Counted from the first letter of the stretch, positions 14,355 through 31,888 are shown. The stretch is 32,000 nt of DNA from Desulfotalea psychrophila LSv54 (GCF_000025945.1 NC_006138.1:2640001-2672000); one strand, 5' to 3'. Numbers and translations are program-made. Notes: generated from the sequence alone by a model not told the origin.

Positions 14355-14685
14355 CGGTACTCCTCCTCGTATCTTTTCTCTTTTTCACAGTTATTGCAAA
14401 ATCAGGGCAGTGAATCTCACAAATTCGGCAACCGATACAGGCATCAGGATTTTCCACCCGGGGCTTTCCTGTTTCGTCTGTACTTATTACCTGCTTAGGA
14501 CAGAGAGCAGAGCAGAGGCCACATGATTTACACCACTCATAGAAGAACTTTACACTATACAGGATTCGCTTCTTCTCTTTCGGGGCTACGGAGCCTGTCT
14601 CTTTGGCAGGGACTTCACTCTTTTTGGCTTTTGCACCTTTTTGAGGGGCAGAAGCTTTGGGAGACGCAGAAACTTTTTTTTCCAT
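14341..14685 (-). CDS. 2-oxoacid:ferredoxin oxidoreductase delta subunit (2x[4Fe-4S] ferredoxin) with a ~40-aa Lys/Ala/Pro-rich N-terminal tail
   Basis: CKSCGLCSALCP and CIGCRICEIHCP cluster motifs. GAGGGA RBS precedes ATG 14685 (MEKKVSASPKASAPQKGAKAKKSEVPAKE...). Confidence 0.8.
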   Translation of the reverse strand: MEKKVSASPKASAPQKGAKAKKSEVPAKETGSVAPKEKKRILYSVKFFYEWCKSCGLCSALCPKQVISTDETGKPRVENPDACIGCRICEIHCPDFAITVKKRKDTRRSTDGKR

Positions 14686-14827
14686 TTTTCCCTCAAACAG
14701 CGTTAAAGGTAGATAAAAAACACTTACAGAACAGCGCATTCACAAACTTCATCTAAAATTTTTACTATAACAGGAGGTAGTGTCAACAAGAATAGCACAG
14801 GAAGACAAAAAAGAGGGGTATTCTATC

Positions 14828-14866
14828 AATAAAACAGGGCAAGCTCTCTGGAAGAGACCACCCTGT
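14828..14866 (-). terminator. Terminator-like hairpin after the MFS transporter gene
   Basis: The minus strand reads ACAGGG...CCCUGU, with inner pairing, followed by UUUAUUG. Confidence 0.4.
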
Positions 14867-14894
14867 AAAATCACACCTACAATGAGCAGACCTG

Positions 14895-16085: not shown

Positions 16086-16092
16086 TGTGACT

Positions 16093-16752
16093 CTAGTGGA
16101 GGGAAAGAATTTGATTAAGAAGGGTAACTGCCTGCCTGCCGTCTCTGTCTGTAATCGCCTGAAAAAGCTCCTTATGGAGCTGCGAGAACTCCACCTCTTG
16201 TCTATCGCCAAGACAGACCTTCTGCTCAACAGAGATACAGATAAACTTAGAGATCGAGCTGTAGAGATCGTAAAGAATTGTGTTACCGGCAGCCCTGGCA
16301 ATTGTCAGGTGAAATTCGATATCTGCCTCGCCATACTCTTTTGAGGAGAAGTGAGCAGAGTTCCTCGCCAACAGGGCCCTCTCAATACGAACAAGATCTG
16401 CCGCGGTACGTCTTTGGGCGGCAAGCTGGACAATTTCCCGTTCGATTACAAGGCGCGCCTCATCCACCTCACTCTCCCGAGAGCCACTTAAGCGATTGAA
16501 GATATTACCCTCGAATCTGCCGGAGGAGACAACATAGGTACCATCTCCCTGGCGTGCCTCAAGGACACCCGCCTGAATCAGTGATTGAATCGCCTCCCGT
16601 ATGGTATTTCTGCTGACAGAAAATTGCCGGACAAGATCTGGCTCCGAGGGAATCTTACTACCAAGCTTAAGATCACCACTTTGAATGTTTTCCTCTATCT
16701 GCTGAGATATCTGCTTAGGCAGGGACTGTTTTATAGGACGTGCAAGTTTCAC
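16093..16752 (-). CDS. GntR family transcriptional regulator (FadR/FCD subfamily)
   Basis: Winged HTH LGSKIPSEPDLVRQFSVSRNTIREAIQSLIQAGVLEARQGDGTYV, followed by a helical FCD-like C-terminal domain. AAGGAG precedes the GTG start. Confidence 0.85.
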   Translation of the reverse strand: MKLARPIKQSLPKQISQQIEENIQSGDLKLGSKIPSEPDLVRQFSVSRNTIREAIQSLIQAGVLEARQGDGTYVVSSGRFEGNIFNRLSGSRESEVDEARLVIEREIVQLAAQRRTAADLVRIERALLARNSAHFSSKEYGEADIEFHLTIARAAGNTILYDLYSSISKFICISVEQKVCLGDRQEVEFSQLHKELFQAITDRDGRQAVTLLNQILSLH

Positions 16753-17644: not shown

Positions 17645-18607
17645 CTAAGCATCGTCTCCAGCGAACGCCCGAAAGGTCTCCATGGCAAAGAGGGCTCTTG
17701 CAGACGGGCTTCTTCTCTTCTGTCCTTCCCCATCGATGAGATCAACCCGGGGCTGAAGGCCATAGCCGTTGGCAACCTGAATGGCGAGGCCGGGCCTGGC
17801 GTTCAGCTCCAGAATCATGGGGCCCTTATTCATATCCAGGACGATATCCACCCCGAGGTAACCGAGACCGGTGATTTCATAACACCTGGCGGCCAAATCT
17901 ACAAAGGCAGACCAATCAGGAACCGAAAAGGTGGAGAGGTCTTTGCCGGTATCCGGATGACGAGTCACAGGACGGTCAAACTGAACGGCCTTGAGGGCAT
18001 GGCCGGTGCCGATATCGATACCCACTCCCACGGCGCCCTGGTGCAGGTTGGCCTTGCCATCCGAATCTTCTGTGGAGAGACGGGTCATGGCCATTATCGG
18101 GTATCCCTTGTAGACAATGACGCGGATATCGGGCACGCCCTGGTAAGAAAAGCCTGTAAAGGCAGAGGAGAACTCAACCATCTCCTCAATCATGGCCACG
18201 TCGTTATTACCACCAAGGCTGAAGAGACCACTGAGGGTGTTCGAGGCATGACGTTTAACCTCCTGAAGGGTGACCCTCGCCCCGCCTGGTTTGAGGAACG
18301 CCTTACCGTCGCGTCCGCCGATGACGAGGATCCCCTTACCACCACTGCCCCGGGCCGGTTTGATGACAAAGGGAGGACAGGTTTCCAGAAATGCTTCAAG
18401 CTCCCTGACATTGCCCTGGGTCTTAACCACCCCGAGAAGCCTGGGCGCGGAGATCCCGGCCTTTGCCAGAATTACCTTGGTCTTCAGTTTGTCATCCACC
18501 AAGGGATAGAGTTTTCTCGGGTTGTTTTGCGCGATCAGAACCACATTGCGTCTGTTCATACCCACAATACCGGCCTTTTTCAGTTGGGCGGGAGAGGCAA
18601 AAAACAT
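17645..18607 (-). CDS. Alpha-L-glutamate ligase-related ATP-grasp protein (RimK-related amidoligase)
   Basis: The N-terminus GIVGMNRRNVVLIAQNNPRKLYPLVDDKLKTKVILAKAGISAP is characteristic of the rimK-related E-ligase family. ATP-grasp motifs FVIKPARGSGGKGI and LGVDIVLD...ILELNARPG are present. Confidence 0.85.
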   Translation of the reverse strand: MFFASPAQLKKAGIVGMNRRNVVLIAQNNPRKLYPLVDDKLKTKVILAKAGISAPRLLGVVKTQGNVRELEAFLETCPPFVIKPARGSGGKGILVIGGRDGKAFLKPGGARVTLQEVKRHASNTLSGLFSLGGNNDVAMIEEMVEFSSAFTGFSYQGVPDIRVIVYKGYPIMAMTRLSTEDSDGKANLHQGAVGVGIDIGTGHALKAVQFDRPVTRHPDTGKDLSTFSVPDWSAFVDLAARCYEITGLGYLGVDIVLDMNKGPMILELNARPGLAIQVANGYGLQPRVDLIDGEGQKRRSPSARALFAMETFRAFAGDDA

Positions 18608-18609
18608 AC

Positions 18610-20124
18610 TTACTTGCCCCCGGACAGAGGTTCAAATCGTCGCAACTCGGTCAGCCTGTAACCGGAGTAACTTCCAATCATAATGATCACAGCCAGAACC
18701 ACCAGCAAAAGCTCGGGGAAGGAATAGGTCAGGTGGCCTACATAGGGGTTTTTCATAACCAGAAAGATAATTGATGCTGAAAAGAGGCTACCTCCACCCT
18801 GAATGAAAACATCCCTGGGGCCCTCTTCTTCCCAGAGAACAGACATGCGCTCAATGGTCCAGGAAATAATGATCATGGGAAAAAAGGTCACCCTTAAGCC
18901 CGCCTCTATCCCCATCTTGATACTAATAACGCTAATGGCCACATAGATAATGATGACAAAGACAAGTACCGCCGAGATCCTCGGCACAAGGAGCAAGTTC
19001 AGGCTACTCAGATAGTAACGGAGAATCAAACCAATCCCGACGATAATAATAAAGAGTGACAGCCCTGCCAGAAGATTAACCTGCAAGAAAACCAAGGCAA
19101 TAAGAATAGGCATAAATGTGCCTGAGGTTTGCACCCCCACAAGGTTCCTAAGGATCACAATGATGAGGGCGCCGATGGGAATGAGGAGCAAGAGTTTAAA
19201 GGTGTTCTGCTGAGAGACGGGAAGACTGTAGATGGAGAAATCAATGAACTTGCTACCGCTGTACCTACCGTGCTGCACAGCAGCTCTTTGGGCCGAGATC
19301 TCTCCTGTCAGGGTGGAATACCTGATCTTTCCGCCTGTGCCGCCCATAATCTCAAGGATAGACTCACTGCCATGCTGCCACTGCAGGAACTGATCCCGAT
19401 TTTCCAGCTCTGCGGTTCTTGGGTTGATCAACTGCACCTGCCGTCCGTTCTGGATTTCAATAAAGCTTCTCAGCTTCTGCTTTTTCTTTGACACTGCTAA
19501 ATTGAGCCCCTTAACAGAGCGTGACTTCACCCCGGCTCTGTTCAGCAAGCTACAGGCAAGATTTACCTTCCCGCCGTATTCGTCCGCGTCGGTGAGGAGC
19601 AACGAGGCGTCCTGATTGATGGGGTCATTAAGGGACACAAGGATTGCCCTTGCCAGCCCCAACTCCGAGGTCTCTTTGCCAAGGGCCTCGGTGACAATAT
19701 GATCGGCTGCCACCTCATGGGCTCCGCTGAAAATAATCACTGCTGCCGGTTCTATCTCCTTCTGGCTAACCTCTCCTCCATCACTGCGCCTATAGGCCGT
19801 GGACCTGAAAAAAATCTTCTGCCGGCCACTTACATCAGCGGCACGCCAGACAGCCCGGCTTCCCTTTCGCTCAAAGCTATACCCTTCAGCAATAGATTTT
19901 CTACCCAGGACTGCGATGGCATCATTGGGGTCGGGCGTATTAACCGAGATCTGCACCGGCCCACCGTCAGCGATAAAGGAGATGGTCGCCTCAACGGTCC
20001 AGGCCATCTCTTTTTTTCCTGGAAGCAGGGGAAAGCCCAACTCTATATGCTTGTATATGGTGGCACCTACCCCCAACACGACCAGAACAGCAACAATGAC
20101 AATAATCTGAATTTGCTGTTTCAT
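18610..20124 (-). CDS. Inactive-transglutaminase domain fused to a 7-TM module (partner of the ATP-grasp ligase)
   Basis: N-terminal TM, then a ~290-aa extracytoplasmic domain, then ~7 hydrophobic helices in the C-terminal 200 aa. The gene has an ATGA overlap with the upstream gene and a 2-nt gap to the ATP-grasp gene. This architecture matches the conserved three-gene amidoligase system described by comparative genomics. Confidence 0.7.
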   Translation of the reverse strand: MKQQIQIIVIVAVLVVLGVGATIYKHIELGFPLLPGKKEMAWTVEATISFIADGGPVQISVNTPDPNDAIAVLGRKSIAEGYSFERKGSRAVWRAADVSGRQKIFFRSTAYRRSDGGEVSQKEIEPAAVIIFSGAHEVAADHIVTEALGKETSELGLARAILVSLNDPINQDASLLLTDADEYGGKVNLACSLLNRAGVKSRSVKGLNLAVSKKKQKLRSFIEIQNGRQVQLINPRTAELENRDQFLQWQHGSESILEIMGGTGGKIRYSTLTGEISAQRAAVQHGRYSGSKFIDFSIYSLPVSQQNTFKLLLLIPIGALIIVILRNLVGVQTSGTFMPILIALVFLQVNLLAGLSLFIIIVGIGLILRYYLSSLNLLLVPRISAVLVFVIIIYVAISVISIKMGIEAGLRVTFFPMIIISWTIERMSVLWEEEGPRDVFIQGGGSLFSASIIFLVMKNPYVGHLTYSFPELLLVVLAVIIMIGSYSGYRLTELRRFEPLSGGK

Positions 20125-20858
20125 CTCTGTTTCTCACTCATGGGGGTAGTTACGTTTTTACGATTTACGTCGACCACAAATTCGCCCTGAAGGAAATTTC
20201 GACCTATGAGAATCTGGTATGCAAAATCAGAGCGATCGGCCAGAGAAAATTCCCTAACAAGCCTGACGCCCCCCATCATACTCTTTACCGTGACCACAGG
20301 TCTTTTCAGCGACTTCTCTCCATGGCGCTTAATCGTTACATTACGAGAGAGACGACATTTCATCTCTTTTTTCTGACCGCTTCTCCTATCTCTCACCATA
20401 AAACGAACCCATTTTTCCCCATCACGCTCAAAGCGCCTTATATCCTTAGCATCAAGGGAAGAGGTCGTTGCCCCAGTATCGATCCTGGCAGGCATTGTCA
20501 CCCCGGACTTAATAAGGGTGACCGGTTCCACCTCACCAATGAGGCGAAGACCGGCAGAGGGCTGAAAAACCGGTTTTATACCGGTCTCAGGGCCCGGTTT
20601 AACTTCGATTCCGACAGCCGGTTTAACTTCGATTCCGACAGCCGGTTTAGCTTCAATGCCGACAGCCGGTTTAGCTTCAATTCCGACAGCCGGTTTAGCT
20701 TCAATTCCGACAGCCGGTTTAGCTTCAATTCCGACAGCCGGTTTAACCCCGGCTTCAATGTCCGGCCTGGATAGGGTACATGAACAAAGTAGCACCGGAA
20801 CCAATAAAAGCATCACTATTCTCTGCCAGCCAAAGATGGCTTTCCTGATCTGAACCAT
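20121..20858 (-). CDS. Retropepsin-like 'ATP-dependent Zn protease' (PF05618/RimB-like) with a signal/lipoprotein-like N-terminus and a (KPAVGIEA)n repeat linker
   Basis: The probable start M21 gives MVQIRKAIFGWQRIVMLLLVPVLLCSC. About six and a half KPAVGIE[AV] repeats follow. The catalytic-type motif is ARIDTGATTSSL, followed by VRFMV...ILIGRNFL. Confidence 0.75.
   Translation of the reverse strand: MVQIRKAIFGWQRIVMLLLVPVLLCSCTLSRPDIEAGVKPAVGIEAKPAVGIEAKPAVGIEAKPAVGIEAKPAVGIEVKPAVGIEVKPGPETGIKPVFQPSAGLRLIGEVEPVTLIKSGVTMPARIDTGATTSSLDAKDIRRFERDGEKWVRFMVRDRRSGQKKEMKCRLSRNVTIKRHGEKSLKRPVVTVKSMMGGVRLVREFSLADRSDFAYQILIGRNFLQGEFVVDVNRKNVTTPMSEKQR
20594..20760 (-). repeat. 24-bp head-to-tail tandem repeat (6 full units plus 1 degenerate) inside the protease gene
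   Basis: On the + strand, units CCGGTTTA(A/G)CTTC(G/A)AT(T/G)CCGACAG lie at 20594, 20618, 20642, 20666, 20690 and 20714. A degenerate unit starts at 20738. Units 4-6 are identical. Confidence 0.95.
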
Positions 20859-21221
20859 TTTTACTCTTTTCACCTGAAAATATATTAACATTCGCCAATT
20901 ATCATTGCCGAAACTCATTCAGCACCGGGCCTGTCATAAACCGCAAGAAGGTTGCCTCCAACCAATCTTGCGGCGACGCCCCCACGAGGACCCCTCTTTT
21001 CCCAGCTCACCTTTTGCCATATTGCCAGTCTGAGGCATGCAGATCTCACTGCCCATATAACATTGTTCTTGTCAATCAGCAACACCACTGATAGAAAGCT
21101 ACCTATTTACAGATGCTTGGAAGAAGACCATCCCCCATTTACACCTGAAGATAATACCTTTACAGATTAGTGAGATTTTATTTCCATAGCTCTCACGGTT
21201 CACACCTGCACATTTATTTAC

Positions 21222-21902: not shown

Positions 21903-23543
21903 TCACTTATAAAGAGTGGCAATAGAGTCGGCCAGTCTCTGCGCTAGTTCAGAGGCTTCATATTTATCTGTCACAACTTCGATATAGGCACCGCTACCAC
22001 AGGCCTCGGCCTTCCTGATCGCCTCATCAAGTTCACCGCAAGTCGTCACCCGGGCGCTAAACCAACCGTCACAACCCAGTACTTCAGGAAGGTCTTTATA
22101 GTGCCACTGGGCAAGATCGTTATAGTAGATATCGGGGTCGCGGCAGAGCAATCGCTCAATCAGATAACCATCGTTGCTGAGCACGAAAATGATTGGTTTG
22201 AGACCATAGCGATGAAACTGACTGATTTCCTGGGCCGTAAACTGATGCGAACCCTCACCGGTGATGAGGATCGTTCGACGATCCGGGGCTGCCAAAGCAG
22301 CACCTAACGCGGCGGGGGTGGCCCAGCCGATCGATCCCCACAGGCTCTGATTGAGAAAGAGCGAGCCATTGGGCATCTTAGCGAAACCGAGCCCCATCGA
22401 GCATGTTCCGGTTTCGGCAACCAGTATATCGTCGGCCTTCAGCATCTGTTCCCAGCGTGGGTAGAGATAATCCACCGTGATCTTATCGTCCTCGCCACCG
22501 ACCGGCTCTCCGAGCCCCTCCACCCTGGGGCCCAGACCATACTTACGGGGCAGTTTTTCGGCCAGCATGACCAAGACATCCTTCATTTCGATATTGTGGT
22601 AGATGGCAGTCCCTACCCGCACCCTATGTGGCATGATATTGATACTTGCGGCAGGATCGATGTTGGCCGTAAAAGAGCCGGAGTTAAAATCTGTGAGCAT
22701 CATGCCGATAGCAAGCAGGCAGTCACTGCCCTCGACAAAGGCCCGAACCTGCTCATTCATCAGCTCGCCGTTGTAGATACCTATATAGCTAGGGTGCGCC
22801 TCATTGAGTACACACTTGTCCATGAACATGGTGGCGAAGGGCAGGCCTGAAGCCTCGACCACGGCGGCAGCCTGGTCTCGAAGCCCGAAACGGGTAGCCA
22901 TGATACCGGGCAGGATACAGGCCCTCTTACTTACGGAAACGGCATGACAAATCGCCTCTACCGCGGCCGCCAGGGTGCCCACCTCGCTTGTTGCCACAAC
23001 CACTGCCTCTGCCTGCCCCACAACCGGCATATCCGCATAGTCTCCCGGGAATGCCATATATACCGGCCGACGGTGATAGAAAGCCGCGGCAATGAGACGT
23101 TCAGTCTCGGCCACACAGTTATCCGGGGTCATGATAGCTCGAGCGCAGACCACCGGCTCCGTCATTTTATAAAAGAGGTCGAACTCACCGTTACCGAGGG
23201 TGTGATGCACTAGGCGGTGAGCGGCCTGAACCCTGCTCGCAGGCATTCCCACCAGATGAAATATTGGCAGATGTTCAGCATAGGCTCCGGCAATGCCGTT
23301 AATGGCGCTGAGCTCTCCTACCCCATAGGCGGTACTGAGCGCAGCAAGACCGTGGATCCGGGCGTAACCATCGGCTGCATAGGCGGCATTAAGTTCGTTA
23401 CAGTTGCCAATCCAGCGCAGCTCCTTATCATTACAAACAGCATCGTTAATGGGGAATGCATAGTCACCCGGTACCCCGAAAACATCCTTCACTCCAAGAT
23501 CTTTCAATCGGGAAAGTACATATTCTATTACGGTCTGTTCCAT
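21903..23543 (-). CDS. Thiamine-diphosphate-dependent 2-keto-acid decarboxylase (indolepyruvate/phenylpyruvate/pyruvate decarboxylase family)
   Basis: The N-terminus VKDVFGVPGDYAFPINDAV...NELNAAYAADGYAR...VGELSAINGIAGAYAEHLPIFHLVGMP is typical of the PDC/IPDC family. The TPP motif is TGEGSHQFTAQEI...VLSNDGY. Confidence 0.9.
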   Translation of the reverse strand: MEQTVIEYVLSRLKDLGVKDVFGVPGDYAFPINDAVCNDKELRWIGNCNELNAAYAADGYARIHGLAALSTAYGVGELSAINGIAGAYAEHLPIFHLVGMPASRVQAAHRLVHHTLGNGEFDLFYKMTEPVVCARAIMTPDNCVAETERLIAAAFYHRRPVYMAFPGDYADMPVVGQAEAVVVATSEVGTLAAAVEAICHAVSVSKRACILPGIMATRFGLRDQAAAVVEASGLPFATMFMDKCVLNEAHPSYIGIYNGELMNEQVRAFVEGSDCLLAIGMMLTDFNSGSFTANIDPAASINIMPHRVRVGTAIYHNIEMKDVLVMLAEKLPRKYGLGPRVEGLGEPVGGEDDKITVDYLYPRWEQMLKADDILVAETGTCSMGLGFAKMPNGSLFLNQSLWGSIGWATPAALGAALAAPDRRTILITGEGSHQFTAQEISQFHRYGLKPIIFVLSNDGYLIERLLCRDPDIYYNDLAQWHYKDLPEVLGCDGWFSARVTTCGELDEAIRKAEACGSGAYIEVVTDKYEASELAQRLADSIATLYK

Positions 23544-24580
23544 AACTCCTCTCCTTACTTGTTAGCTGTTAGCTTGTCGATTTTAGAGCTAAGGCCTGCA
23601 ATAGGGTGTGTGCTGTGACTTAGCTAAACTAAAAGAACAAGTCATGCCGGCCTGTTCATCATTGATAGCTGACAATTTTTATTCTTACAGTTGCTTAAAA
23701 TAAATTTGATAAAAAAAAGCACCTAAACATTCCACCGTTGAAAAACATTAGACGATTTCCTCCAACCAATATGCAGGGATAATTTTGGAAGATAGAATCT
23801 TCTGTCCATGGCCCAAGAAAGGGCAACTATAAGAAACAACAGGGTGTATGGGACAGGTATAGGTCGTTAACTCATCCTGGCTTGCAAGAGAGGATGAAGC
23901 CCCCCATTCAGATACTCTCTGGATCTTCTTTTGTCTTTATTTTTTGCGCAAATATCTCCATATCCCCTGTGCTTGATTAAGACTTAAGTTCAGCGAAAGC
24001 TCTGCCCGAAAAATTTCAATCTCAACCTCTTGACCATGTGCTACAGATCATATCACAGATATTATGCTAAGTACCAAAGCCTCAACGAATGAATCAGCTT
24101 CCAAAGAAACTCTGGACCCTTATTATTATAGCATGGCAAGAGCGGAGGGTGGATTGCAGAAGAGTGTTAGGGGGTGTGAGTGTAGGATACTTGAACAGGA
24201 TTTTTTTATGTCATCTCCAAGCAACTTGTCGCACCTATTCTACCAACTCAGCTACCATAAAAAATCCGACAGACTCCTAATGGGACTCTATGTGACCCTG
24301 TAATTAATTACAGCGCCAATACTACCTCTTATGCAAACAAGAGCTACAGGGGAGACAGCTAAGAGTCAAATAAATCTTTACTCACAGACGAGAAAGAGTG
24401 TGTAGCCGGGACCAATTGAAGACAAATCCATCCTGACAGAGAGAGCACCTGTCAAGGGCATATTTATTTAAGAACCGACCGACCAAGCAGAGGAGAGCAA
24501 AACAATGTGCCCCTTCTCACTTGATTTCGCCTGCCTGATTCACCTAGCATGTTAATAGGTCTTTCAATTTTCATGATCTC

Positions 24581-24610
24581 CCTCTGCCAGCCATACTCTC
24601 CTGGCAGAGG
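24581..24610 (+). other. Perfect 10-bp-stem hairpin in the 5' leader, 22 nt upstream of the aldehyde dehydrogenase start codon
   Basis: CCTCTGCCAG (24581..24590) pairs with CTGGCAGAGG (24601..24610) across a 10-nt loop. No U-tract follows, so it is not a classical terminator. Confidence 0.5.
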
Positions 24611-24632
24611 AGTCACAAGCTACGAGGACAAT

Positions 24633-26165
24633 ATGGAAAGTATAAAAAAACTACATATAAAGAAAGCCAACAGCGGTATTTGCACCGGCACAGAGTGGAT
24701 CTCCCCCGCAGGTAGCAAGGTCATAGAATCCATCTCACCTGTGGACGGAAGGATCATCGCCAAAATCCAAGCAGGAGGAGCGCCTGAATATAAGCGAATT
24801 ATTACTCAGGCCCAAAAGGCCTTTCCCCTCTGGCGGAAAATCCCTGCCCCTGAGCGTGGAGAAATTGTCCGACAGATTGGCGAGGCCCTGCGCAAAGATA
24901 AGGAGAACCTTGGCAGGATGATTTGCCTGGAGATGGGGAAATCTCTTCAGGAGGGATATGGAGAGGTACAGGAAATGATCGATGTCTGTGACTTTGCCGT
25001 GGGCCAGTCACGCATGTTATACGGCGCCACCATGCCCTCGGAAAGACCCTCCCACAGACTCTACGATCAGTATCATCCCCTTGGTGTTGTCGGCATTATT
25101 ACTGCCTTTAATTTTCCTGCCGCAGTTTGGGCCTGGAACGCCATGCTCTCGACTGTCTGTGGCAATGTCTTGGTATGGAAGCCCTCTTCCCAGGTAGGCC
25201 TAACCGCCATTGCCATCCAGCATATCATCGCCCGGGTCCTCAAGAAAAACAAGCTGCCCGAAGGCATTTTTTCTCTTATCTGTGGTAGTGGCAAGGACAT
25301 AGGCGACCTGATGCTTGCAGATACCCGCCTGCCCCTTATCTCCTTTACCGGTTCTGTTCGTACCGGTCGACATGCCGCCCAAATCATTGCCGGGCGCCTC
25401 GGTAAATCCCTCCTAGAGCTGGGAGGAAATAACAGTATCATTATCAGCCCAGAGGCAGATCTTGCTATTGCCATCCCCGCCGTGGTCTTTGGCGCTGTCG
25501 GTACTGCTGGACAACGCTGCACCACCACCCGTCGCCTGATTATTCATGAATCTATCTATGACAAGGTAAGAGATGGTCTGACAAAGGCCTATAAAAGTCT
25601 GCGTATTGGCAGCCCCCTCAACCAAGATAACCATATGGGGCCCCTGGTAAACCAGGATGCCGTCGCCAATTATCTCGCAGCAGTAGAGACCATCAAAGAC
25701 CAAGGGGGAGAGATACTATGCGGTGGCCATGCCCTACAAGGAGAGGGCTTTGAATCTGGCTGCTATGTTGCCCCCACCCTGGTTGAGGTGAAAAGCGATA
25801 TCCCCATTATCAAGGAGGAGACCTTTGCTCCCATCCTCTATTTAATTAGGTATAGCGGAGATATTAACCAGGCCATAGAGATCAATAACAGTGCCCATGA
25901 GGGACTCTCCTCTGCCATTTTTTCCAACAACCTGCGGGAGGCTGAAACCTTCCTCTCGCCATGGGGTTCTGACTGTGGCATTGCCAATGTCAATATCGGT
26001 ACCTCGGGGGCTGAGATTGGCGGCGCCTTTGGCGGAGAAAAAGACACCGGAGGTGGGCGTGAATCCGGTTCAGACGCCTGGAAGGCCTATATGCGCCGAC
26101 AAACGGTGACCATAAACTATGGCCACGAACTGCCCCTGGCCCAGGGGATAAACTTTACCATCTAA
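24633..26165 (+). CDS. amaB: ALDH7-type aldehyde dehydrogenase (alpha-aminoadipate semialdehyde / piperideine-6-carboxylate dehydrogenase)
   Basis: EGYGEVQEMIDVCDFAVGQSRMLYGATMPSERPSHRLYDQYHPLGVVGIITAFNFPAAVWAWN closely follows the antiquitin/ALDH7 signature. The catalytic region ELGGNN...GTAGQRCTT is present. Start at ATG 24633 (GAGGA RBS) is preferred over 24549. Confidence 0.85.
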   Translation: MESIKKLHIKKANSGICTGTEWISPAGSKVIESISPVDGRIIAKIQAGGAPEYKRIITQAQKAFPLWRKIPAPERGEIVRQIGEALRKDKENLGRMICLEMGKSLQEGYGEVQEMIDVCDFAVGQSRMLYGATMPSERPSHRLYDQYHPLGVVGIITAFNFPAAVWAWNAMLSTVCGNVLVWKPSSQVGLTAIAIQHIIARVLKKNKLPEGIFSLICGSGKDIGDLMLADTRLPLISFTGSVRTGRHAAQIIAGRLGKSLLELGGNNSIIISPEADLAIAIPAVVFGAVGTAGQRCTTTRRLIIHESIYDKVRDGLTKAYKSLRIGSPLNQDNHMGPLVNQDAVANYLAAVETIKDQGGEILCGGHALQGEGFESGCYVAPTLVEVKSDIPIIKEETFAPILYLIRYSGDINQAIEINNSAHEGLSSAIFSNNLREAETFLSPWGSDCGIANVNIGTSGAEIGGAFGGEKDTGGGRESGSDAWKAYMRRQTVTINYGHELPLAQGINFTI

Positions 26166-26204
26166 GACGGGACAAGCTCCCCTCTCATATACTGGAGATT
26201 ATCT

Positions 26205-27515
26205 ATGACATCTCGCGTAAGCTCTACTCTGGCCCGACATATACTGGCGGACGGCCTGCCCTTGGTTTTTGATCTGAAAAAATCCCGGGGATCGCAGTTG
26301 GTAGATAAAAATAGCGGCGACAGTTTTTTAGATTTTTTCTCCATGTTCGCCTCCATGGCCGTGGGGCACAACCACCCAAGCCTCTTGGCAATACAGGAGC
26401 AACTTGGGGCCGTGGCCATCCAAAAGCCTTCCAGCTCGGATGTCTACACCGAAGAGTTTGCTGAATTTGTCGACACCTTCGCCCAGCTGGCAATGCCTGC
26501 GTTCATGCCCCATGCCTTCTTTATCGAAGGAGGGGCCCTGGCCGTTGAGAACAGCCTCAAAACTGCCTTCGACTGGAAAACCCGCCTCAACCAAGCGAGA
26601 GGCATAGCCACACCTAAGGGCACAAAAATCATCCATTTCCAGCAGGCCTTTCACGGTCGTTCCGGCTATACCCTCTCTTTAACCAATACCCATGACCCGA
26701 GAAAGACAAAGTTCTTCCCCATAATGGACTGGCCACGAATCCTCAATCCCAAAATCACCTTCCCACTTAATCGAGAAAACCTTGGACAGGTCATCGAACT
26801 GGAGGAGAGGGCTCTTGCCCAGATTCACCAGGTTATTGGCAGGGAAGGTGATGATATTGCTGGCCTCATCATTGAGCCTATCCAGGGAGAAGGCGGTGAC
26901 AACCACTTCCGCCCGATTTTTTTCCGGCAACTACGCAAGATCTGCGATGACCATGATATTTTGTTCATCGTAGATGAGATCCAAAGCGGAATGGGCATAA
27001 CCGGAAAGATGTGGGCCCATGAACATTTAGAGATTGAACCGGATATCCTCTGCTTTGGTAAGAAGACTCAGGTCTGCGGCATTATGGCAAGCAAAAGAAT
27101 CGACAAGGTTGAAAACAATGTCTTTAAAGAGTCCAGCCGACTCAACTCCACCTTCGGGGGCAATCTGGTAGACATGGTGCGCTGTACCCATATTCTCAGA
27201 ATTATTGAAGAGGAGAGACTGGTGGACAATGCCCGAGTCCAGGGAAATCATCTTCTCCGTCAGCTTGAAGGCCTGGGAGAAGAGTTCCCCCACCTTGTCT
27301 CCAACCCCCGGGGTAGAGGCCTTATGTGCGCCTTTGACCTACCCTCAGAGACCATGCGCAATCAATTTATCGAGGATATGTATAAGGCGCGGGTACTGCT
27401 CCTCGGCTGCGGAGAAAAAGCCATCAGGTTCCGGCCCCACCTCGTGGTTCGTCGGGAAGAGATTGACGAAGGCATGGATATTATCCGTCGGACCATCAAA
27501 AAAACAATGGGTTAA
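26205..27515 (+). CDS. lat: L-lysine 6-(epsilon)-aminotransferase (class III PLP aminotransferase)
   Basis: The N-terminus HILADGLPLVFDLKKSRGSQLVDKNSGDSFLDFFSMFASMAVGHNHP matches the LAT family pattern. Also present: IIEPIQGEGGDNHF, VDEIQSGMGITGKMWA, and the PLP-lysine region FGKKTQVCG. Confidence 0.85.
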   Translation: MTSRVSSTLARHILADGLPLVFDLKKSRGSQLVDKNSGDSFLDFFSMFASMAVGHNHPSLLAIQEQLGAVAIQKPSSSDVYTEEFAEFVDTFAQLAMPAFMPHAFFIEGGALAVENSLKTAFDWKTRLNQARGIATPKGTKIIHFQQAFHGRSGYTLSLTNTHDPRKTKFFPIMDWPRILNPKITFPLNRENLGQVIELEERALAQIHQVIGREGDDIAGLIIEPIQGEGGDNHFRPIFFRQLRKICDDHDILFIVDEIQSGMGITGKMWAHEHLEIEPDILCFGKKTQVCGIMASKRIDKVENNVFKESSRLNSTFGGNLVDMVRCTHILRIIEEERLVDNARVQGNHLLRQLEGLGEEFPHLVSNPRGRGLMCAFDLPSETMRNQFIEDMYKARVLLLGCGEKAIRFRPHLVVRREEIDEGMDIIRRTIKKTMG

Positions 27516-27522
27516 TCCTGCA

Positions 27523-29112
27523 ATGAAAAGTTCAAAGAGAAAGAGACTGGCCCTCCACCTCGACCAGCAGATCGAGGGTACGGTCTATACCGACCAGACA
27601 ACCCTGCAGCGCTATTCCACCGATAAATCCATTTATCAGGTGGTACCGCAAATGGTTGTAAGCCCTGCCTCAATGGAGGATCTTACTACCATAGTGAGCA
27701 CGGCCAGAGACGAGAACCTGTCTGTCACCGCCCGAGGTGGTGGTTCCGGAACGGCAGGTGCAGCCCTCGGTGAGGGTATTGTTATCCATCTGCCCCGCAA
27801 TGGTTTCCTAGGTAATATAGTTGACTTCAGCACCGGGGCTGGCAAGGACTATATTACTGTTGAAGCCGGTGTCTACCATGATACCATCCAGACATTTTTA
27901 AAAAAGGAGGGCTATTATCTGCCGGCAGACCCCTCCAGCTCCCCCCTCTGCCAGATAGGTGGCAATATTGCTACCAAGGCAAGCGGGCCACATGGCTTTT
28001 CCCATGGCAGTATCGACAGATTTTTACAGGATATCGAATATATCTCGGCCCGGGGTGAGCATATCGATTCGGCCCGGCCAAAGAGCATCCCGCCAACTCT
28101 CAGGGCAGCCCTTACCCAACTACAAGAGAAGGTTCGAGCTGATAAGGCAACGGTCTCCCTGCTAAAAAAACGGCGCAATTTCAAGACAGCAAGTGGCTAT
28201 AACCTCTTTGCCCTTATGGCTGAGCTGCAACCAGAAAAAATCCTGGCCCAGCTTTTCGCCGGCAGTGTCGGCAGTCTTGGCCTCATCACCCGAGCGACGT
28301 TGCGCGTTGAGCCCTATACCCCCGAAAAGGCGGCCCTCCTCCTCTACTTCACCGACCTCCATGCTCTCAGCCTGGCTACTCAGGAGGCAATTGCGGCAGA
28401 GGTAACTGCCATCGAGGTGATCAGTCAAGCCACCATCAGGCTCCTGAAAAGGAGGAAGGGAGCAGGAAGCGATGAACTCCATAACGGCCATCTGCTCTTT
28501 ATTGAATGTGAGGGGCCAATGCGGCAGGCCCGACTGGCGCAACTTAAGGAGAAGCTCAGAAAAAGCCCAAACCTCCTCGTCCCTCCCCAAGAGGCACAGA
28601 CAGAGGAAGAGCTTGCCAAACTGTGGAAAATCCGCAAACAGATCCTACCGGTACTTCTCCGACCCGGGGCTGGAATGAAGGCCCTCTCAATCGTCAATGA
28701 TGTTGGGGTTCCACCTCAGCACCTGGCCCACTTTATCGAGGACATTGAGACTTTTTTCAGAAAGAAGGGTCTGGAAACGGTGATCTATGGCCATGCGGGC
28801 AATGGCAATCTTCATCTCCGCCCTCTAATCAATATTAAAGAGACAGATCTGAAAGAGCGCATTCAGGCCATTGCCGACGGAGTCTACGAGATAGTCTTCC
28901 GCTATAAGGGTACCATCACCGCCGAACATGCCATGGGACGACTACGCACTCCCTATCTTGAACGGGAATGGGGCTCGTCCATATACAGGCACATGAAGAG
29001 GGTCAAAGATATTTTCGATCCAGATAATATCTTAAACCCCGAGGCAATGTTTGGCAGGGGAGCCATTACCGATAAGATGCGCCATGACCTATTTGAACCA
29101 GTTCAAAAATAA
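27523..29112 (+). CDS. FAD-binding oxidoreductase (PCMH-type FAD domain, GlcD/YdiJ-N-terminal-like); candidate D-2-hydroxyacid dehydrogenase
   Basis: YSTDKSIYQVVPQMVVSPAS...ARGGGSGTAGAALGEGIVI...VEAGV...CQIGGNIATKASGPHG...GHAGNGNLHLRP...GTITAEHAMGR. The ATG is 8 nt after the lat stop. The 5' 106 codons of the track ORF overlap lat in another frame and are rejected. Confidence 0.8.
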   Translation: MKSSKRKRLALHLDQQIEGTVYTDQTTLQRYSTDKSIYQVVPQMVVSPASMEDLTTIVSTARDENLSVTARGGGSGTAGAALGEGIVIHLPRNGFLGNIVDFSTGAGKDYITVEAGVYHDTIQTFLKKEGYYLPADPSSSPLCQIGGNIATKASGPHGFSHGSIDRFLQDIEYISARGEHIDSARPKSIPPTLRAALTQLQEKVRADKATVSLLKKRRNFKTASGYNLFALMAELQPEKILAQLFAGSVGSLGLITRATLRVEPYTPEKAALLLYFTDLHALSLATQEAIAAEVTAIEVISQATIRLLKRRKGAGSDELHNGHLLFIECEGPMRQARLAQLKEKLRKSPNLLVPPQEAQTEEELAKLWKIRKQILPVLLRPGAGMKALSIVNDVGVPPQHLAHFIEDIETFFRKKGLETVIYGHAGNGNLHLRPLINIKETDLKERIQAIADGVYEIVFRYKGTITAEHAMGRLRTPYLEREWGSSIYRHMKRVKDIFDPDNILNPEAMFGRGAITDKMRHDLFEPVQK

Positions 29113-29151
29113 GTTCCCTGATACATCTCATGTAAAGATGGAGAGAACATA

Positions 29152-30546
29152 ATGAAAAATGTAGATAGATTTGCCTGGCAACGACAGCCCCGGACAGAGA
29201 CCTACCTGGTAAGTTTAATAACAGATCTGGCAGAAAAAAATCCGCTCATTGGTAAACTTGATAATAAATTACAGACCATTACCTCGACAAGGATGCTCGA
29301 CTGGCTGGATCATATTGTGGCCGAGGATTCGCTGCTGCTTCGTCAACGTCTTAGTCAGTTGGGCTTTACCGAAAAAAGATCCCCTACAGGGAGCATTTTT
29401 TCCCCTCATGGCGTGAGCCTACCCAAAATTATTCTACCAGAATCAGTGAAAAGATCTCCTCCGGGTATCGCCCTAAAGGTAGACTCCATCGCTGATTTTC
29501 TCCAGTGCAACAGTCTCAGCGGTGAAATTGAGGGTACCCCCTTGGCCCAGGTACGAAAGTGCACGGCCTCCCGCAAGAATGGCACAGCCCTTTATGCGGT
29601 GGAACGCAGGGGCAGTGATGCTCTACCCCCAGCCCATATTGAAATTGATCCAGCCCGATATCTGCAGGCAATAGAAAAATGGCAGCGCCTGCCCAGGTCA
29701 GGGCCTGATCGCGATCAGACCTTTGCCCTGATAGTTCATACTGCCCAAGAGTTGGTTGAGAGCATGGGCCAAAACCTTGCCGCCCATATTGTCTGTGAAG
29801 CCGAGCGACGTTACTGGATGTCACGCAATCAGGCTGGGCGTATACAAAAGATGCGTCAGGATATTATGGGAATGGGATGGGCAAATCATGATCACCATAC
29901 CTTTCGCAGTTCAAGGAAACACTTTAATCAACTGATCAACCTCTTCACCCTCCTTGGCTTTCATAAGCGGGAAAGATTCTACGCAGGTGCTGAAGCGGGA
30001 TGGGGCGCCCAGGTAATGGAGAACCCCACAGCAGGCATCTCCCTCTTTCTCGATGTAGACCTGGCCCCGGAGGAGATGGAAGTTGATTTTTCCAGACAGG
30101 AACTGGCTGAGCGGGAAGAACTTGGCAGCGTAGGCCTGTGGTGCGCACTACACGGAGACTCGATTCTCGGTGCCGGCATGCACCATCTGGCGGCAGCCTT
30201 TCTCTTTGCTGATCTCCCCACCGACCTGGCAGGCTATAATATTAACTTTATGGAACCGTTTAGCGATTTTCCCTATCTCAAACAGGCATTTAGTTCGGGA
30301 GAGCGCTGGGACACTGATCCGGAGGTGGTACAAGGCCTGCTTAAAGATAGGCTTATCAGCGAAAAGCAGGCAGATCGATTCCTCGACAAGGGGGCCATTG
30401 GCAGCCATTTGGAGAATATTCAGCGCCGGGATGGCTATAAGGGCTTTAACCAAGAGAACGTCAGCGTCATCATAGCGGAAACTGATCCCCGAAGGGTTGC
30501 TGATGTTAGAGGGGACCTGCCCCATCACTGGTCGAAAATGCCGTAA
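29152..30546 (+). CDS. Uncharacterised 464-aa protein; the C-terminal half carries DUF1338/HglS-like (VOC-fold Fe(II) 2-oxoadipate dioxygenase/decarboxylase family) motifs
   Basis: A GGAGAG RBS precedes the ATG. Three motifs occur in the same order as in DUF1338: NHDHHTFRS...LINLFTLLGF (H-x3-R), GMHHLAAAF (cf. NHLT), and HLENIQRRDGYKGFNQENVSVIIAET (cf. GEIEQRG...GF..NA..IFEST). The comparison is from memory of YdcJ/HglS. Coding confidence is high; functional assignment is ~0.4. Confidence 0.7.
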   Translation: MKNVDRFAWQRQPRTETYLVSLITDLAEKNPLIGKLDNKLQTITSTRMLDWLDHIVAEDSLLLRQRLSQLGFTEKRSPTGSIFSPHGVSLPKIILPESVKRSPPGIALKVDSIADFLQCNSLSGEIEGTPLAQVRKCTASRKNGTALYAVERRGSDALPPAHIEIDPARYLQAIEKWQRLPRSGPDRDQTFALIVHTAQELVESMGQNLAAHIVCEAERRYWMSRNQAGRIQKMRQDIMGMGWANHDHHTFRSSRKHFNQLINLFTLLGFHKRERFYAGAEAGWGAQVMENPTAGISLFLDVDLAPEEMEVDFSRQELAEREELGSVGLWCALHGDSILGAGMHHLAAAFLFADLPTDLAGYNINFMEPFSDFPYLKQAFSSGERWDTDPEVVQGLLKDRLISEKQADRFLDKGAIGSHLENIQRRDGYKGFNQENVSVIIAETDPRRVADVRGDLPHHWSKMP

Positions 30547-30718: not shown

Positions 30719-30841
30719 AGACAATACGAGCAACAAATGCTGAGCCTGGAGAGGATGAAAGGCCTGCTTGAGAACAGGTTCATTAGCGGGACCACGTTGA
30801 ACAATTTCCTAGCTACATGTTTGATTATCTGTGGATTATTT
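30719..30841 (+). pseudogene. Possible IS5-family transposase C-terminal remnant at the core/island junction
   Basis: RQYEQQMLSLERMKGLLENRFISGT--TLNNFLATCLIICGL resembles the IS5/IS427 C-terminal pattern YRQRNxIERxFxxLKxFRRIATRYDKxxxNFLAxxxLAxxxxWL with the RYDK segment deleted. The match is from memory only. Confidence 0.3.
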
Positions 30842-31283
30842 AAACAAAAACCTTTCTCTAAACCACCCAAGTTGCAACGTTGGTAAAAAGAATATCTTTA
30901 AACCATATTTGTATTGAAATGGTCGGTATTTATTTAGAGTATCGGTAAAATTTAACAATTTTTTCTCATCTTCGTCATAGCCTTGTTCTATTTTTATTTC
31001 TATGACCAAAAGATTATTCTCAAGTTCAAGCCTTCCACGTTTATGTATAACGATATCTGGTCTCTTATGATTTTTGTGAGAATCATGTTTCGGGTCAAGT
31101 TCTTCACCCATTTCGTTGTATTCACAATCAACATTAAATCCAGAGAAATACTCTTCTAGATTAACAGCATAACCTATGCGCAGTTGCCCATTCCAGTTTA
31201 TTGCATATCAGTTCCAGATCGTTGATCTGAACCTTTTTTATTGCCCCTAAGATAATTTTTTCTAAAATTTCGTGTTCCATCAT
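30836..31283 (-). pseudogene. PD-(D/E)xK nuclease-fold protein, apparently frameshifted near its N-terminus
   Basis: The 91-aa ORF contains RPDIVIH...NNLLVIEIK (D...E-x-K core). Its frame stays open upstream (YAINWNGQLRIGYAVNLEEYFSGFNVDCEYNE) as far as a stop at 31208..31210. A separate frame from ATG 31283 reads MMEHEILEKIILGAIKKVQINDLEL... A 1-nt shift near 31185-31225 would fuse the two. Confidence 0.45.
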
Positions 31284-31341
31284 TTTTTTATCCAATGCAC
31301 TTCATCTTTTATTTAGATAACGCCAAGTTAAATAGCGCACG

Positions 31342-31707
31342 TTAACGCATCTCAGCTTTAGTCCTTATTGGCTTCTTGAACTTCGAAGCTAGTTTAAATT
31401 TTAAGTTGCTTACGGTCTCTTCTCTATCAAAAGAGGCTTGAACTGCAATAATTGGGATACAATTTCTTTTAGCCTCACGCAACTCCCATTGAACCCATTC
31501 AGACTCATTAATAGAGTTGGATGACATTAGCAGTAACAATTGAGCTTGCGATAGCATCTGTTCTACGTGGCGTTGCTTGTCTATTGAGTCGTTATGTAAC
31601 AAGTCGATGTAATAAGACCCGTATTCTGAAAGCACCTCGGACACACTCTCTAATAGTTTACGATCAATATAGTGATCTCTAGTGGTATAACTAACGAATA
31701 TTCCCAT
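31342..31707 (-). CDS. Small TIR-like domain protein (ThsB/DUF1863-like)
   Basis: MGIFVSYTTRD (TIR betaA/box 1-like), LLLLMSSNSINSEWVQWELREA-type motif (S-x-W-x3-E-L-x-x-A), and CIPIIAV. 121 aa. The ATG begins 1 nt after the stop of the upstream small ORF. ~33% GC. Confidence 0.65.
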   Translation of the reverse strand: MGIFVSYTTRDHYIDRKLLESVSEVLSEYGSYYIDLLHNDSIDKQRHVEQMLSQAQLLLLMSSNSINESEWVQWELREAKRNCIPIIAVQASFDREETVSNLKFKLASKFKKPIRTKAEMR

Positions 31708-31708
31708 G

Positions 31709-31888
31709 TCACTTACCAATCCAATTCATAAAAAATGCAAACCAGCCTATAAGCCCTAGTGTCGATAAAGCATAGTAAAGAGACATTGAATGATTAAATG
31801 CCGCACCTAGCCAGCTTACTCCTAATTGTTCAGGTTGATAGTTGTCAATTAAATTTCTTTGAGCTATTGCTTGCAGTTTCCTGTTCAT
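31709..31888 (-). CDS. 59-aa ORF with a single C-terminal TM helix (below the ORF-track size cut-off)
   Basis: MNRKLQAIAQRNLIDNYQPEQLGVSWLGAAFNHSMSLYYALSTLGLIGWFAFFMNWIGK. Its stop TGA abuts the TIR-like ATG (TGAcATG). No strong RBS. Confidence 0.35.
   Translation of the reverse strand: MNRKLQAIAQRNLIDNYQPEQLGVSWLGAAFNHSMSLYYALSTLGLIGWFAFFMNWIGK

Follow-up and report, generated by a model that had tools for sequence, protein, structure and literature searches.

An unnamed HPPD-like protein family in a lysine catabolic operon of Desulfotalea psychrophila, a candidate replacement for HglS

Which enzyme would turn 2-oxoadipate into 2-hydroxyglutarate in a lysine operon that lacks a recognizable HglS? 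In Pseudomonas putida, the D-lysine/2-aminoadipate branch of lysine catabolism is the lat-amaB-lysN-hglS-ydiJ route (GapMind pathway definition), and the step is performed by HglS (YdcJ; DUF1338, PF07063; PP_5260; PDB 6w1g), an Fe(II)- and O2-dependent enzyme that strictly prefers 2-oxoadipate. The question is raised by four co-directional ORFs at 24633-30546 of the window, by which we mean the whole 32,000-nucleotide stretch of the Desulfotalea psychrophila LSv54 genome that was analysed (NC_006138.1:2640001-2672000). These genes and two neighboring features of the window are as follows:

24633..26165, + strand: gene 1, 510 aa; ALDH7-type L-piperideine-6-carboxylate (P6C)/2-aminoadipate-semialdehyde dehydrogenase
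26205..27515, + strand: gene 2, 436 aa; L-lysine 6-transaminase (LAT)
27523..29112, + strand: gene 3, 529 aa; FAD-linked D-2-hydroxyacid dehydrogenase of the GlcD/D-LDH/D-2-HGDH family, candidate D-2-hydroxyglutarate dehydrogenase
29152..30546, + strand: gene 4, here called X, 464 aa; member of an unnamed family with a predicted two-barrel HPPD-like VOC fold, candidate Fe(II) 2-oxoadipate decarboxylating hydroxylase
21903-23543, divergent from the operon: TPP decarboxylase resembling indolepyruvate decarboxylase (461 bits, under the cut-off of 946)
11598-14739, - strand: 2-oxoacid:ferredoxin oxidoreductase (OFOR), four subunits

The operon is real. The ORF calls give gaps of 39, 7 and 39 nt, exactly the tight linkage described in the original prediction, which had been made from the sequence alone, and ribosome-binding sites of the GGAG type lie upstream of genes 1, 2 and 4 (for gene 1, a GAGGA 7 nt 5' of the ATG). 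Rfam found no lysine riboswitch or other RNA across the whole window at the gathering score or in the 1.1-kb upstream gap at E<=1, and a promoter and terminator scan returned no terminators above shuffled expectation and no usable operon boundary signal. The surroundings were also correctly described: the divergent TPP decarboxylase and the four-subunit OFOR operon are both present, and a Pfam scan detected no class-I/II aminotransferase among the largest ORFs of the window, in agreement with the predicted lack of a 2-aminoadipate aminotransferase. We rejected the TPP decarboxylase as a pathway member; no relative locus carries such a gene beside the cluster, including the two closest (X identity 70% and 66%), and nothing links the two.

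The first two genes are readily assigned. Gene 1 exceeds, over its full length, the equivalog cut-off of NF050084 (L-piperideine-6-carboxylate dehydrogenase; 776.2 bits, cut-off 730) and matches Pfam Aldedh (E 8e-140). Gene 2 matches Pfam Aminotran_3 and exceeds the equivalog cut-off of TIGR03251 (LAT_fam, L-lysine 6-transaminase; 773.2 bits, cut-off 520.8), with residues 3-432 spanning model positions 2-433. By these sequence models both are bona fide members of the families first proposed for them. From family membership, LAT would transfer the epsilon-amino group of lysine to 2-oxoglutarate, yielding 2-aminoadipate semialdehyde in equilibrium with P6C, and the ALDH7-type enzyme would oxidize semialdehyde/P6C to 2-aminoadipate. 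The pathway logic of the original prediction, from lysine through 2-aminoadipate, 2-oxoadipate and D-2-hydroxyglutarate to 2-oxoglutarate, fits these two genes.

Gene 3 had been described as a YdiJ/GlcD-like FAD dehydrogenase, and we find that it is a member of the GlcD-type FAD family and not a YdiJ equivalog. It carries Pfam FAD_binding_4 and FAD-oxidase_C, as do YdiJ (PP_4493) and the human and bacterial D-2-HGDH enzymes. Among NCBIfam models it scores best against YdiJ (NF049975; 227.2 bits, cut-off 1350), with the match confined to the N-terminal half (model positions 24-537 of 1018) and no C-terminal Fe-S (CCG) half. The score against TIGR00387 (glycolate oxidase subunit GlcD) is 200.8 bits, under the equivalog cut-off of 567.9, and PDB sequence matches include glycolate oxidase, LctD, LDHD and human D-2-HGDH. 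In the alignment with human D-2-HGDH, which has a gap around gene 3 K386, human R386, K401, Y432, H434, H441, E475 and H476 are conserved as gene 3 R371, K386, Y422, H424, H431, E468 and H469, so that the R, H, H, E, H equivalents of the Zn/2-hydroxyacid site are shared with YdiJ and D-2-HGDH. Among the C5-carboxylate residues of the human enzyme, K401 and Y432 are kept, whereas Leu (L375) stands in place of T390 and Arg (R433) in place of N443. Gene 3 appears to have a 2-hydroxyacid active site with dicarboxylate-type residues, and the K401 and Y432 equivalents together with an Arg at the N443 position favor a dicarboxylic D-2-hydroxyacid as the probable substrate. D-malate is a further substrate of both human and bacterial D-2-HGDH (PMC7801405).

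The family of X is large, has no name and is absent from Pfam and NCBIfam, and neither collection holds a model that matches X even at E<=10. The family comprises more than 6,224 homologues at 90% identity clustering and 995 clusters at 50% identity, with a range that includes Desulfobacterota, Nitrospirota, Chlamydiae, Planctomycetota and Chloroflexota; the closest relatives among named organisms are from Desulfogranum species. Homologues are named 'hypothetical' or unnamed, with the exception of two JGI entries ('4-hydroxyphenylpyruvate dioxygenase-like putative hemolysin'), and our literature search found no paper describing the family. The DUF1338-like motifs originally reported for gene 4 were not borne out beyond a motif-level H-x3-R likeness: PF07063 is absent from X and from all 36 homologues scanned at E<=10, PDB sequences including HglS 6w1g and 2rjb gave no match by phmmer or profile, and hhalign against YdcJ alone or YdcJ plus HglS gave nothing (probability <=0.3%). 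Hence, of the Pfam domains expected in the last two genes, FAD_binding_4 is found in gene 3 and PF07063 is missing from X. A control comparison of 4-hydroxyphenylpyruvate dioxygenase (HPPD) with DUF1338 by hhalign was also non-significant, so negative results with such shallow profiles exclude X from the DUF1338 family itself and not from very remote homology to it. Pfam Glyoxalase and HPPD models likewise matched nothing significantly in the family (best Glyoxalase E 0.058, in two of 36 members), and no HPPD is found among the matches listed (150 of 995) in the X-family profile search.

The AlphaFold (AF2) model of X (pLDDT 85.4, pTM 0.85) was compared to the PDB with Foldseek, and the top 50 matches are all HPPD or hydroxymandelate synthase (HMS), with E from 5.9e-9 to 3e-6 and probability 1.00; TM-scores are low (0.2-0.36) and the rmsd is about 20 A, such that the similarity shown is local and modular only. 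The DSSP string of the model contains four beta-alpha-beta-beta-beta-like modules arranged in two pairs as in HPPD, from which X differs by a pair of helices at the N terminus and a helical insert of about 70 residues between the domains. A separate model of the C-terminal domain (residues 236-452) reached a pLDDT of only 54 and was not used for the fold search. Sequence evidence for homology between X and HPPD is weak: hhalign against HPPD profiles gave P values of 0.14 and 0.014, the latter over 280 collinear columns that include both domains. In structure and mechanism HglS is closest to HPPD and HMS, and it folds as one seven-stranded barrel (PMC7286885). Judged by the model, X clearly has a predicted VOC-superfamily fold of the same mechanistic class as HglS, and its nearest structural relatives are HPPD and HMS. 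The original prediction had staked its account of gene 4 on a match or structural similarity to DUF1338 or VOC proteins, and similarity to VOC enzymes is what the model displays. Three motifs of X could supply a metal site:

29890..29916, + strand: X residues 247-255, DHHTFRSSR; proposed first metal His H248 and substrate-binding Arg R252 (+4)
30175..30192, + strand: X residues 342-347, GMHHLA; proposed second metal His H345
30403..30429, + strand: X residues 418-426, SHLENIQRR; proposed metal Glu E421

The first motif is invariant in 36 of 36 close homologues and in the AF2 model falls on strand 1 of VOC module 3, with R252 changed to D or E in divergent X subgroups only. Its H-x3-R spacing is that of RH70GAIR74 on the first ligand strand of HglS, in which Arg74 has a 2-oxoadipate-specific role (PMC7286885); aligned HPPDs instead carry N or G at this +4 position. 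The second motif places H345 where strand 1 of module 4 begins in the model and is paired by hhalign with HPPD G(I/V)QH(I/L)A. The third corresponds to F-L-E-V-I-Q-R of HPPD with G-F...N after it (PDB entries 1sqi, 3isq and 5ec3 confirm the motif for human HPPD), and hhalign pairs E421 with the HPPD Glu. H345 and E421 are 76 residues apart, versus 79 for the equivalent residues in the HPPD alignment. All three motifs (DH..., G.HH.A and LE.IQR..G..GF..N) occur in HPPD order and spacing, and the invariant H248-x3-R252, H345 and E421 align with HPPD, not with HglS. Additionally, H248, H345 and E421 disappear as a set in divergent members; for instance, six of the seven divergent members without H248 also lack H345. 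We propose that H248, H345 and E421 form the predicted Fe(II) triad. The family has further invariant His, Asp and Glu residues, more than a triad needs (H334, D336, H344, H419, D301 and D303).

Genomic context was compared at 80 loci, the closest relatives among at least 575 found in the scan. The order ALDH-LAT-FAD-X recurs in at least ten genomes or contigs, the window included, and partial versions of the cluster occur at further loci. Within the sample, the four-gene cluster is found only in Desulfobulbales, Desulfuromonadales, Syntrophotaleaceae and Nitrospirota MAGs, lineages known mainly as anaerobes. LAT and/or P6CDH genes lie beside X at 14 of the 80 loci (in Desulfobacterota, Nitrospirota, one Verrucomicrobiae MAG and one Aminicenantes MAG), a short FAD gene is directly upstream of X at 17, and a long FAD/Fe-S gene is convergent with X at 13, mostly chlamydial. 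The neighbors of X include lysine-catabolism genes and never tyrosine-catabolism genes. They are of the same kinds as those of DUF1338 HglS genes, which are ALDH (amaB), aminotransferase and glycolate-dehydrogenase-like genes (10.1101/450254). Using sequence inspection and partial Pfam labels, we read the hldD/hldE-like and ribosomal genes 5' of X in Chlamydiae as lineage synteny and rejected them as a functional link.

Taking these data together, we propose, with a probability of roughly one half, that the operon encodes catabolism of L-lysine to 2-oxoglutarate and that X, a protein of predicted HPPD fold, stands in for HglS without being its orthologue. After the LAT and P6C dehydrogenase steps, 2-aminoadipate would be converted to 2-oxoadipate by an aminotransferase encoded elsewhere. 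In X, His248, His345 and Glu421 would form the predicted Fe(II) site, and Arg252 may hold the distal carboxylate of the alpha-keto acid. Fold, motifs and context suggest that X would use O2 to decarboxylate and hydroxylate 2-oxoadipate to 2-hydroxyglutarate, the HglS reaction in an unrelated-looking family. Lastly, the FAD dehydrogenase would oxidize 2-hydroxyglutarate to 2-oxoglutarate, regenerating the amino acceptor. The steps and order of chemistry would be those of the P. putida route, and in both a D-2-hydroxyacid dehydrogenase closes the pathway. The two differ in that the operon fills the hglS slot with a family that has no detectable sequence relationship to HglS, four predicted modules in two barrels and a different taxonomic range; has no linked lysN; uses a 529-aa single-module dehydrogenase without the Fe-S half; and resides mainly in anaerobes. 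Several points count against the proposal. Besides the weak sequence evidence for HPPD homology, the low TM-scores and the surplus of invariant residues described above, an O2-dependent step would be unusual in mainly anaerobic lineages, a valid concern of the original prediction; no 2-aminoadipate aminotransferase is linked to the operon; and about 47 of the 80 loci have X with none of these neighbors.

Two alternatives, both of them unlikely, deserve comparison with this proposal. In the first, X is an HPPD/HMS-type Fe(II)/O2 alpha-keto-acid oxygenase acting on a substrate other than 2-oxoadipate (for example, 2-oxoglutarate, with malate as the product, or a different keto acid that is dicarboxylic or derived from lysine), and the FAD enzyme oxidizes the resulting D-2-hydroxyacid. 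The HPPD/HMS-like fold and motifs suit this reading as well as our own, D-2-HGDH enzymes accept D-malate, and in many Chlamydiae, Planctomycetota and Chloroflexota X is alone or with a YdiJ-type gene only, with no LAT/P6CDH nearby. However, X recurs beside LAT and P6CDH genes in several phyla, which points to a lysine-derived C6 keto acid, and the invariant +4 Arg mirrors the 2-oxoadipate-specific Arg of HglS.

The second alternative turns on O2. Some members of the VOC superfamily, glyoxalase I and methylmalonyl-CoA epimerase among them, work without O2, and X might catalyze an O2-independent isomerization, epimerization or lyase step on a lysine-pathway intermediate, in which case its oxygenase-like fold would be misleading. 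The weak Glyoxalase matches in two family members are consistent with this, as are the restriction of the sampled clusters to mainly anaerobic lineages, near anaerobe-typical genes such as OFOR, and the invariant D301/D303 on the last strand of module 3, which would make a four-ligand, glyoxalase-type site. We nevertheless regard it as improbable: the best fold matches are all two-barrel alpha-keto-acid dioxygenases with no glyoxalases or epimerases, the LE.IQR...GF..N motif is specific to HPPD-type enzymes, and no chemically obvious O2-free step leads from 2-aminoadipate or 2-oxoadipate to a GlcD-type dehydrogenase substrate. Still more doubtful is an HPPD-type-fold family that performs the 2-oxoadipate to 2-hydroxyglutarate conversion, or an equivalent one, without O2 in strict anaerobes.

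The least probable reading, that X is a true but very divergent DUF1338/HglS member, could draw on its equal length (464 aa, as in chain 6w1g_A), its H-x3-R and E..QR motifs, its HglS-type genomic neighbors and the failure of shallow-profile hhalign to recover even the known HPPD-HglS relationship, yet X shows none of the DUF1338 sequence matches sought above, its top 50 Foldseek matches contain no DUF1338 structure, and its predicted two paired barrels with a helical insert differ from the single barrel of HglS.

If X does catalyze the HglS reaction, as we propose, a function would be gained for a 'hypothetical' family that numbers over 6,000 clusters at 90% identity. For this step, the VOC keto-acid oxygenase scaffold would have been recruited a second, independent time. 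In Desulfobacterota, Nitrospirota and probably further phyla, the 2-oxoadipate step would presumably escape pathway predictors that rely on DUF1338 only. Either an O2-dependent step of amino-acid catabolism has been kept by sulfate and metal reducers for spells of exposure to oxygen, or the scaffold has a new, O2-free activity; the latter would be new chemistry for a VOC 'oxygenase' scaffold and would provide an anaerobic route from lysine to 2-oxoglutarate.

A final observation concerns the Chlamydiae, for which we know of no description of D-2-hydroxyacid metabolism. The long neighbor of X in this phylum, unlike gene 3, has the full YdiJ architecture, and the one such gene tested has YdiJ as its best family match (545 bits). 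That X has a YdiJ-type partner here suggests that Chlamydiae metabolize D-2-hydroxyacids.

The original prediction described four tightly linked genes, and ORF analysis of the window found them co-directional, with the same gaps of 39, 7 (gene 2 stop to gene 3 start) and 39 nt. GGAG-type ribosome-binding sites lie ahead of genes 1, 2 and 4. The divergent TPP decarboxylase upstream and the 2-oxoacid:ferredoxin oxidoreductase (OFOR) operon noticed earlier were both located.

24633-26165, plus strand: gene 1, ALDH7-type P6C dehydrogenase
26205-27515, plus strand: gene 2, L-lysine 6-transaminase (LAT)
27523-29112, plus strand: gene 3, FAD dehydrogenase
29152-30546, plus strand: gene 4, encoding the 464-aa protein X
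21903-23543, divergent from the operon: TPP decarboxylase (indolepyruvate decarboxylase model: 461 bits, cut-off 946)
11598-14739, minus strand: OFOR, four subunits

The lysine pathway itself is already known. Gene 1 scores 776 bits against the NCBIfam equivalog for L-piperideine-6-carboxylate dehydrogenase (cut-off 730) and gene 2 scores 773 bits against that for L-lysine 6-transaminase (cut-off 521). Both exceed their cut-offs, and the conversion of lysine to 2-aminoadipate, as originally assigned to these two genes, is therefore well founded. In agreement with the reported absence of a 2-aminoadipate aminotransferase, no class-I/II aminotransferase was found among the window's largest ORFs scanned against Pfam, and we infer the missing transamination step. 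Gene 3 had been called a YdiJ/GlcD-like FAD dehydrogenase. The broad family stands, with Pfam domains FAD_binding_4 and FAD-oxidase_C, but the specific names do not: the closest family model, YdiJ, is matched only in its N-terminal half, with 227 bits (cut-off 1350), and GlcD reaches 201 bits (cut-off 568). Gene 3 therefore encodes a member of the D-2-hydroxyacid dehydrogenase family without further assignment and without the Fe-S half of YdiJ. In a HMMER alignment with human D-2-hydroxyglutarate dehydrogenase, the Zn/2-hydroxyacid residues R386, H434, H441, E475 and H476 are kept (R371, H424, H431, E468 and H469); among the four that contact the C5 carboxylate, two are kept (K401 as K386, Y432 as Y422) and two differ (Arg433 for N443, Leu375 for T390). 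Enzymes acting on D-lactate or glycolate carry small or hydrophobic side chains where the human enzyme has K401, Y432 and N443 (PMC7801405), and by this comparison gene 3 leans towards a dicarboxylic D-2-hydroxyacid, with D-2-hydroxyglutarate itself a candidate rather than a proven substrate.

The fourth gene was said to carry motifs like those of DUF1338 (PF07063), the family of the Pseudomonas putida enzyme HglS, which converts 2-oxoadipate to D-2-hydroxyglutarate. This assignment failed. X has zero Pfam or NCBIfam matches even at E ≤ 10, and across 36 homologues the best match is a non-significant one to Glyoxalase (E 0.058, in 2 of 36). Neither X (phmmer) nor the family profile matched any PDB sequence in a library that included HglS (6w1g) and YdcJ (2rjb), and hhalign of X against E. 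coli YdcJ alone or YdcJ plus HglS gave a probability of ≤0.3%. On these negatives we rejected X as a DUF1338 member. The top 50 Foldseek PDB matches of the X model also include no DUF1338 structure.

X instead represents a family with more than 6,224 matches among clusters at 90% identity and 995 clusters at 50% identity, without a large tail of distant relatives. Its members have no family or domain annotation and are nearly all “hypothetical” or unnamed, apart from two JGI entries called “HPPD-like putative hemolysin”. The family has no Pfam or NCBIfam description and no solved structure detectable by sequence, and it was not found in the literature that could be searched. What is new here is a candidate enzyme family for the pathway's fourth step, proposed from sequence and a structural model. 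The AlphaFold model, computed from a 36-sequence alignment, is confident (pLDDT 85.4, pTM 0.85) and has four VOC-type modules in two pairs (52-96 and 105-152; 246-303 and 345-425), with a helical insert (167-237) between the pairs. 4-Hydroxyphenylpyruvate dioxygenases (HPPDs) and hydroxymandelate synthases make up the entire top 50 of Foldseek hits in the PDB (E 5.9e-9 to 3e-6, probability 1.00); with TM-scores of only 0.2-0.36, the resemblance is modular and not a rigid global superposition.

Profile-profile comparison with five annotated bacterial hppD genes from plasmids points the same way. The alignment of close X homologues gave P 0.14 in hhalign, pairing GMHHLA with HPPD G(I/V)QH(I/L)A, and a more diverse alignment gave P 0.014 with 280 collinear columns across both domains, pairing E421 of X with the glutamate of HPPD F(F/L)E.IQR. 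The 22-residue human HPPD motif was confirmed in PDB chains, and the corresponding stretch of X is SHLENIQRRDGYKGFNQENV. In HPPD we take the metal ligands as the histidines of the DH and QH motifs together with the LEVIQR glutamate (human H183, H266 and E349); their predicted counterparts in X are H248, H345 and E421. In the model, H248 and H345 fall on the opening strands of modules 3 and 4, respectively, and E421 on the closing strand of module 4; H345 and E421 are 76 residues apart, compared to 79 in the aligned HPPDs.

The three candidate ligands tend to be lost together. In an alignment of 24 divergent X relatives, where co-loss counts ignore kinship, H345 is also gone in 6 of the 7 relatives without H248, as is E421 (6/7), and H345 is kept in 16 of the 17 with H248. 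H54 and H344 are unlikely ligands, as both differ among members that are canonical in other respects. R252, at +4 from H248 and facing the same side of the strand, does not vary among close homologues. The His-to-Arg spacing is equal in HglS (RH70GAIR74), whose specificity is set by Arg74, the residue that binds the 2-oxoadipate distal carboxylate (PMC7286885). Three divergent relatives (P0206, P0221, P0241) carry Asp or Glu in place of R252, two of them together with Asn in place of H344, behavior that would be expected of a specificity determinant. Joint loss of H248, H345 and E421 marks further subgroups (P0210, P0214, P0225, P0230, P0238, P0266, P0270). The R252-substituted and ligand-less subgroups may be altered-specificity and non-catalytic paralogues, respectively.

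In a genome scan covering a single genome for each species, at least 575 X relatives were found, of which the closest 80 were examined by tblastn with the window's proteins; our counts refer to that sample. LAT and/or P6C dehydrogenase genes lie beside X at 14 of these 80 loci, a short FAD gene is directly upstream of X at 17, and the complete four-gene order of the window is present at 6. With loci from an exact-protein look-up added, the full order, whose co-occurrence elsewhere had been proposed as a check, is present in the window and at L006, L009, L012, L013, L014, L026, L067, L094 and L095, in Desulfobulbales, Desulfuromonadales, Syntrophotaleaceae and Nitrospirota. The two closest relatives (X 70% and 66% identical) have different flanks without the TPP decarboxylase; therefore, the four genes are the conserved unit. 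At the closest, L094, the cluster is closely preceded on its own strand by an NAD-dependent D-isomer 2-hydroxyacid dehydrogenase gene (1531-2481).

Variants include ALDH-LAT-X (Geoalkalibacter, Desulfogranum marinum), FAD-X alone and, in an Aminicenantes MAG, X followed by a P6C dehydrogenase gene. In a Verrucomicrobiae MAG (L082, 6832-12594), LAT-ALDH-X precedes a 3-oxoadipyl-CoA-thiolase-like gene (579 bits, cut-off 597), a hint that the C6 skeleton is processed differently downstream in that MAG. L023, a contig assigned to a Pedobacter MAG, carries LAT-FAD-X with flanking clusters common to Pelobacter/Desulfuromonadales loci (L022, L073) and may be mis-binned. At about 45 chlamydial loci X is downstream of heptose-synthesis and ribosomal genes, which we read as lineage synteny. 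At 13 mostly chlamydial loci X and a long FAD/Fe-S gene converge. The single such protein compared with family models, the 955-aa product at L039 (convergent pair at 11844-16074), matches YdiJ best (545 bits, short of the cut-off), and its C-terminal half is GlpC-like. A gene of about 955 aa with this YdiJ architecture, convergent with X, also occurs at L017, L036, L043, L046, L056, L065, L068 and L079. Through the FAD genes of window-type and chlamydial loci, X is thus tied to two D-2-hydroxyacid dehydrogenase lineages, as well as to both 2-aminoadipate-making enzymes. These are the neighbor types given for DUF1338 genes in the HglS discovery paper: aldehyde dehydrogenases, aminotransferases and glycolate-dehydrogenase-like genes (10.1101/450254). 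At several of the convergent chlamydial loci, astB (N-succinylarginine dihydrolase) and further genes resembling the arginine-succinyltransferase pathway follow.

The reading with most support, at a probability of about 0.5, makes X a non-orthologous counterpart of HglS with an HPPD fold. X would bind 2-oxoadipate through its keto-acid group at Fe(II) on the predicted H248/H345/E421 site, R252 would grip the distal carboxylate, and reaction with O2 would yield 2-hydroxyglutarate and CO2; gene 3 would then oxidize 2-hydroxyglutarate to 2-oxoglutarate. The analysis establishes who genes 1 and 2 are, the fold class of X, its conserved motifs and the linkage of the genes, whereas substrate, product, metal and O2 use are inferred along with the transamination. 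The same chemistry on another keto acid would fit the conserved site equally, but alongside the HglS-like R252 spacing and the lysine genes we consider it unlikely. We are just as doubtful of an O2-independent VOC reaction. A hidden DUF1338 member is, after the profile and PDB searches, very improbable, and some function outside these readings takes the remaining probability. The four-gene cluster is confined, in this sample, to lineages known mainly as anaerobes, and the window also has the OFOR operon; the wider X family extends to Chlamydiae, Planctomycetota, Chloroflexota and Verrucomicrobiota. X may work only during oxygen exposure, or may need no O2 at all.

Other features of the window include a 1,089-nt gap (23544-24632) between the TPP decarboxylase and the operon, with no convincing ORF and zero Rfam matches even at E ≤ 1; across the whole window, the Rfam scan was likewise empty, riboswitches included. 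A GAF-domain sigma-54-dependent activator (5743-7383) and, directly upstream of the OFOR operon, a GntR/FCD regulator and MFS transporter (14895-16752) showed no link to the lysine operon. A three-gene set at 17645-20918 (minus strand) encodes an ATP-grasp protein (PF14397), a 7TM-inactive transglutaminase fusion (PF14402/PF14400) and a PF05618 “Zn_protease” protein, whose gene contains a tandem repeat (20594-20745; 24-nt unit, 6.3 copies, 96% identity) encoding KPAVGIEA repeats. Directly downstream of the lysine operon, a TIR-domain ORF (PF13676; ThsB-like PF08937, weak) and a small neighboring ORF (30836-31719, minus strand) lie in low-GC DNA (0.37) and may be a fragment of a defence island.
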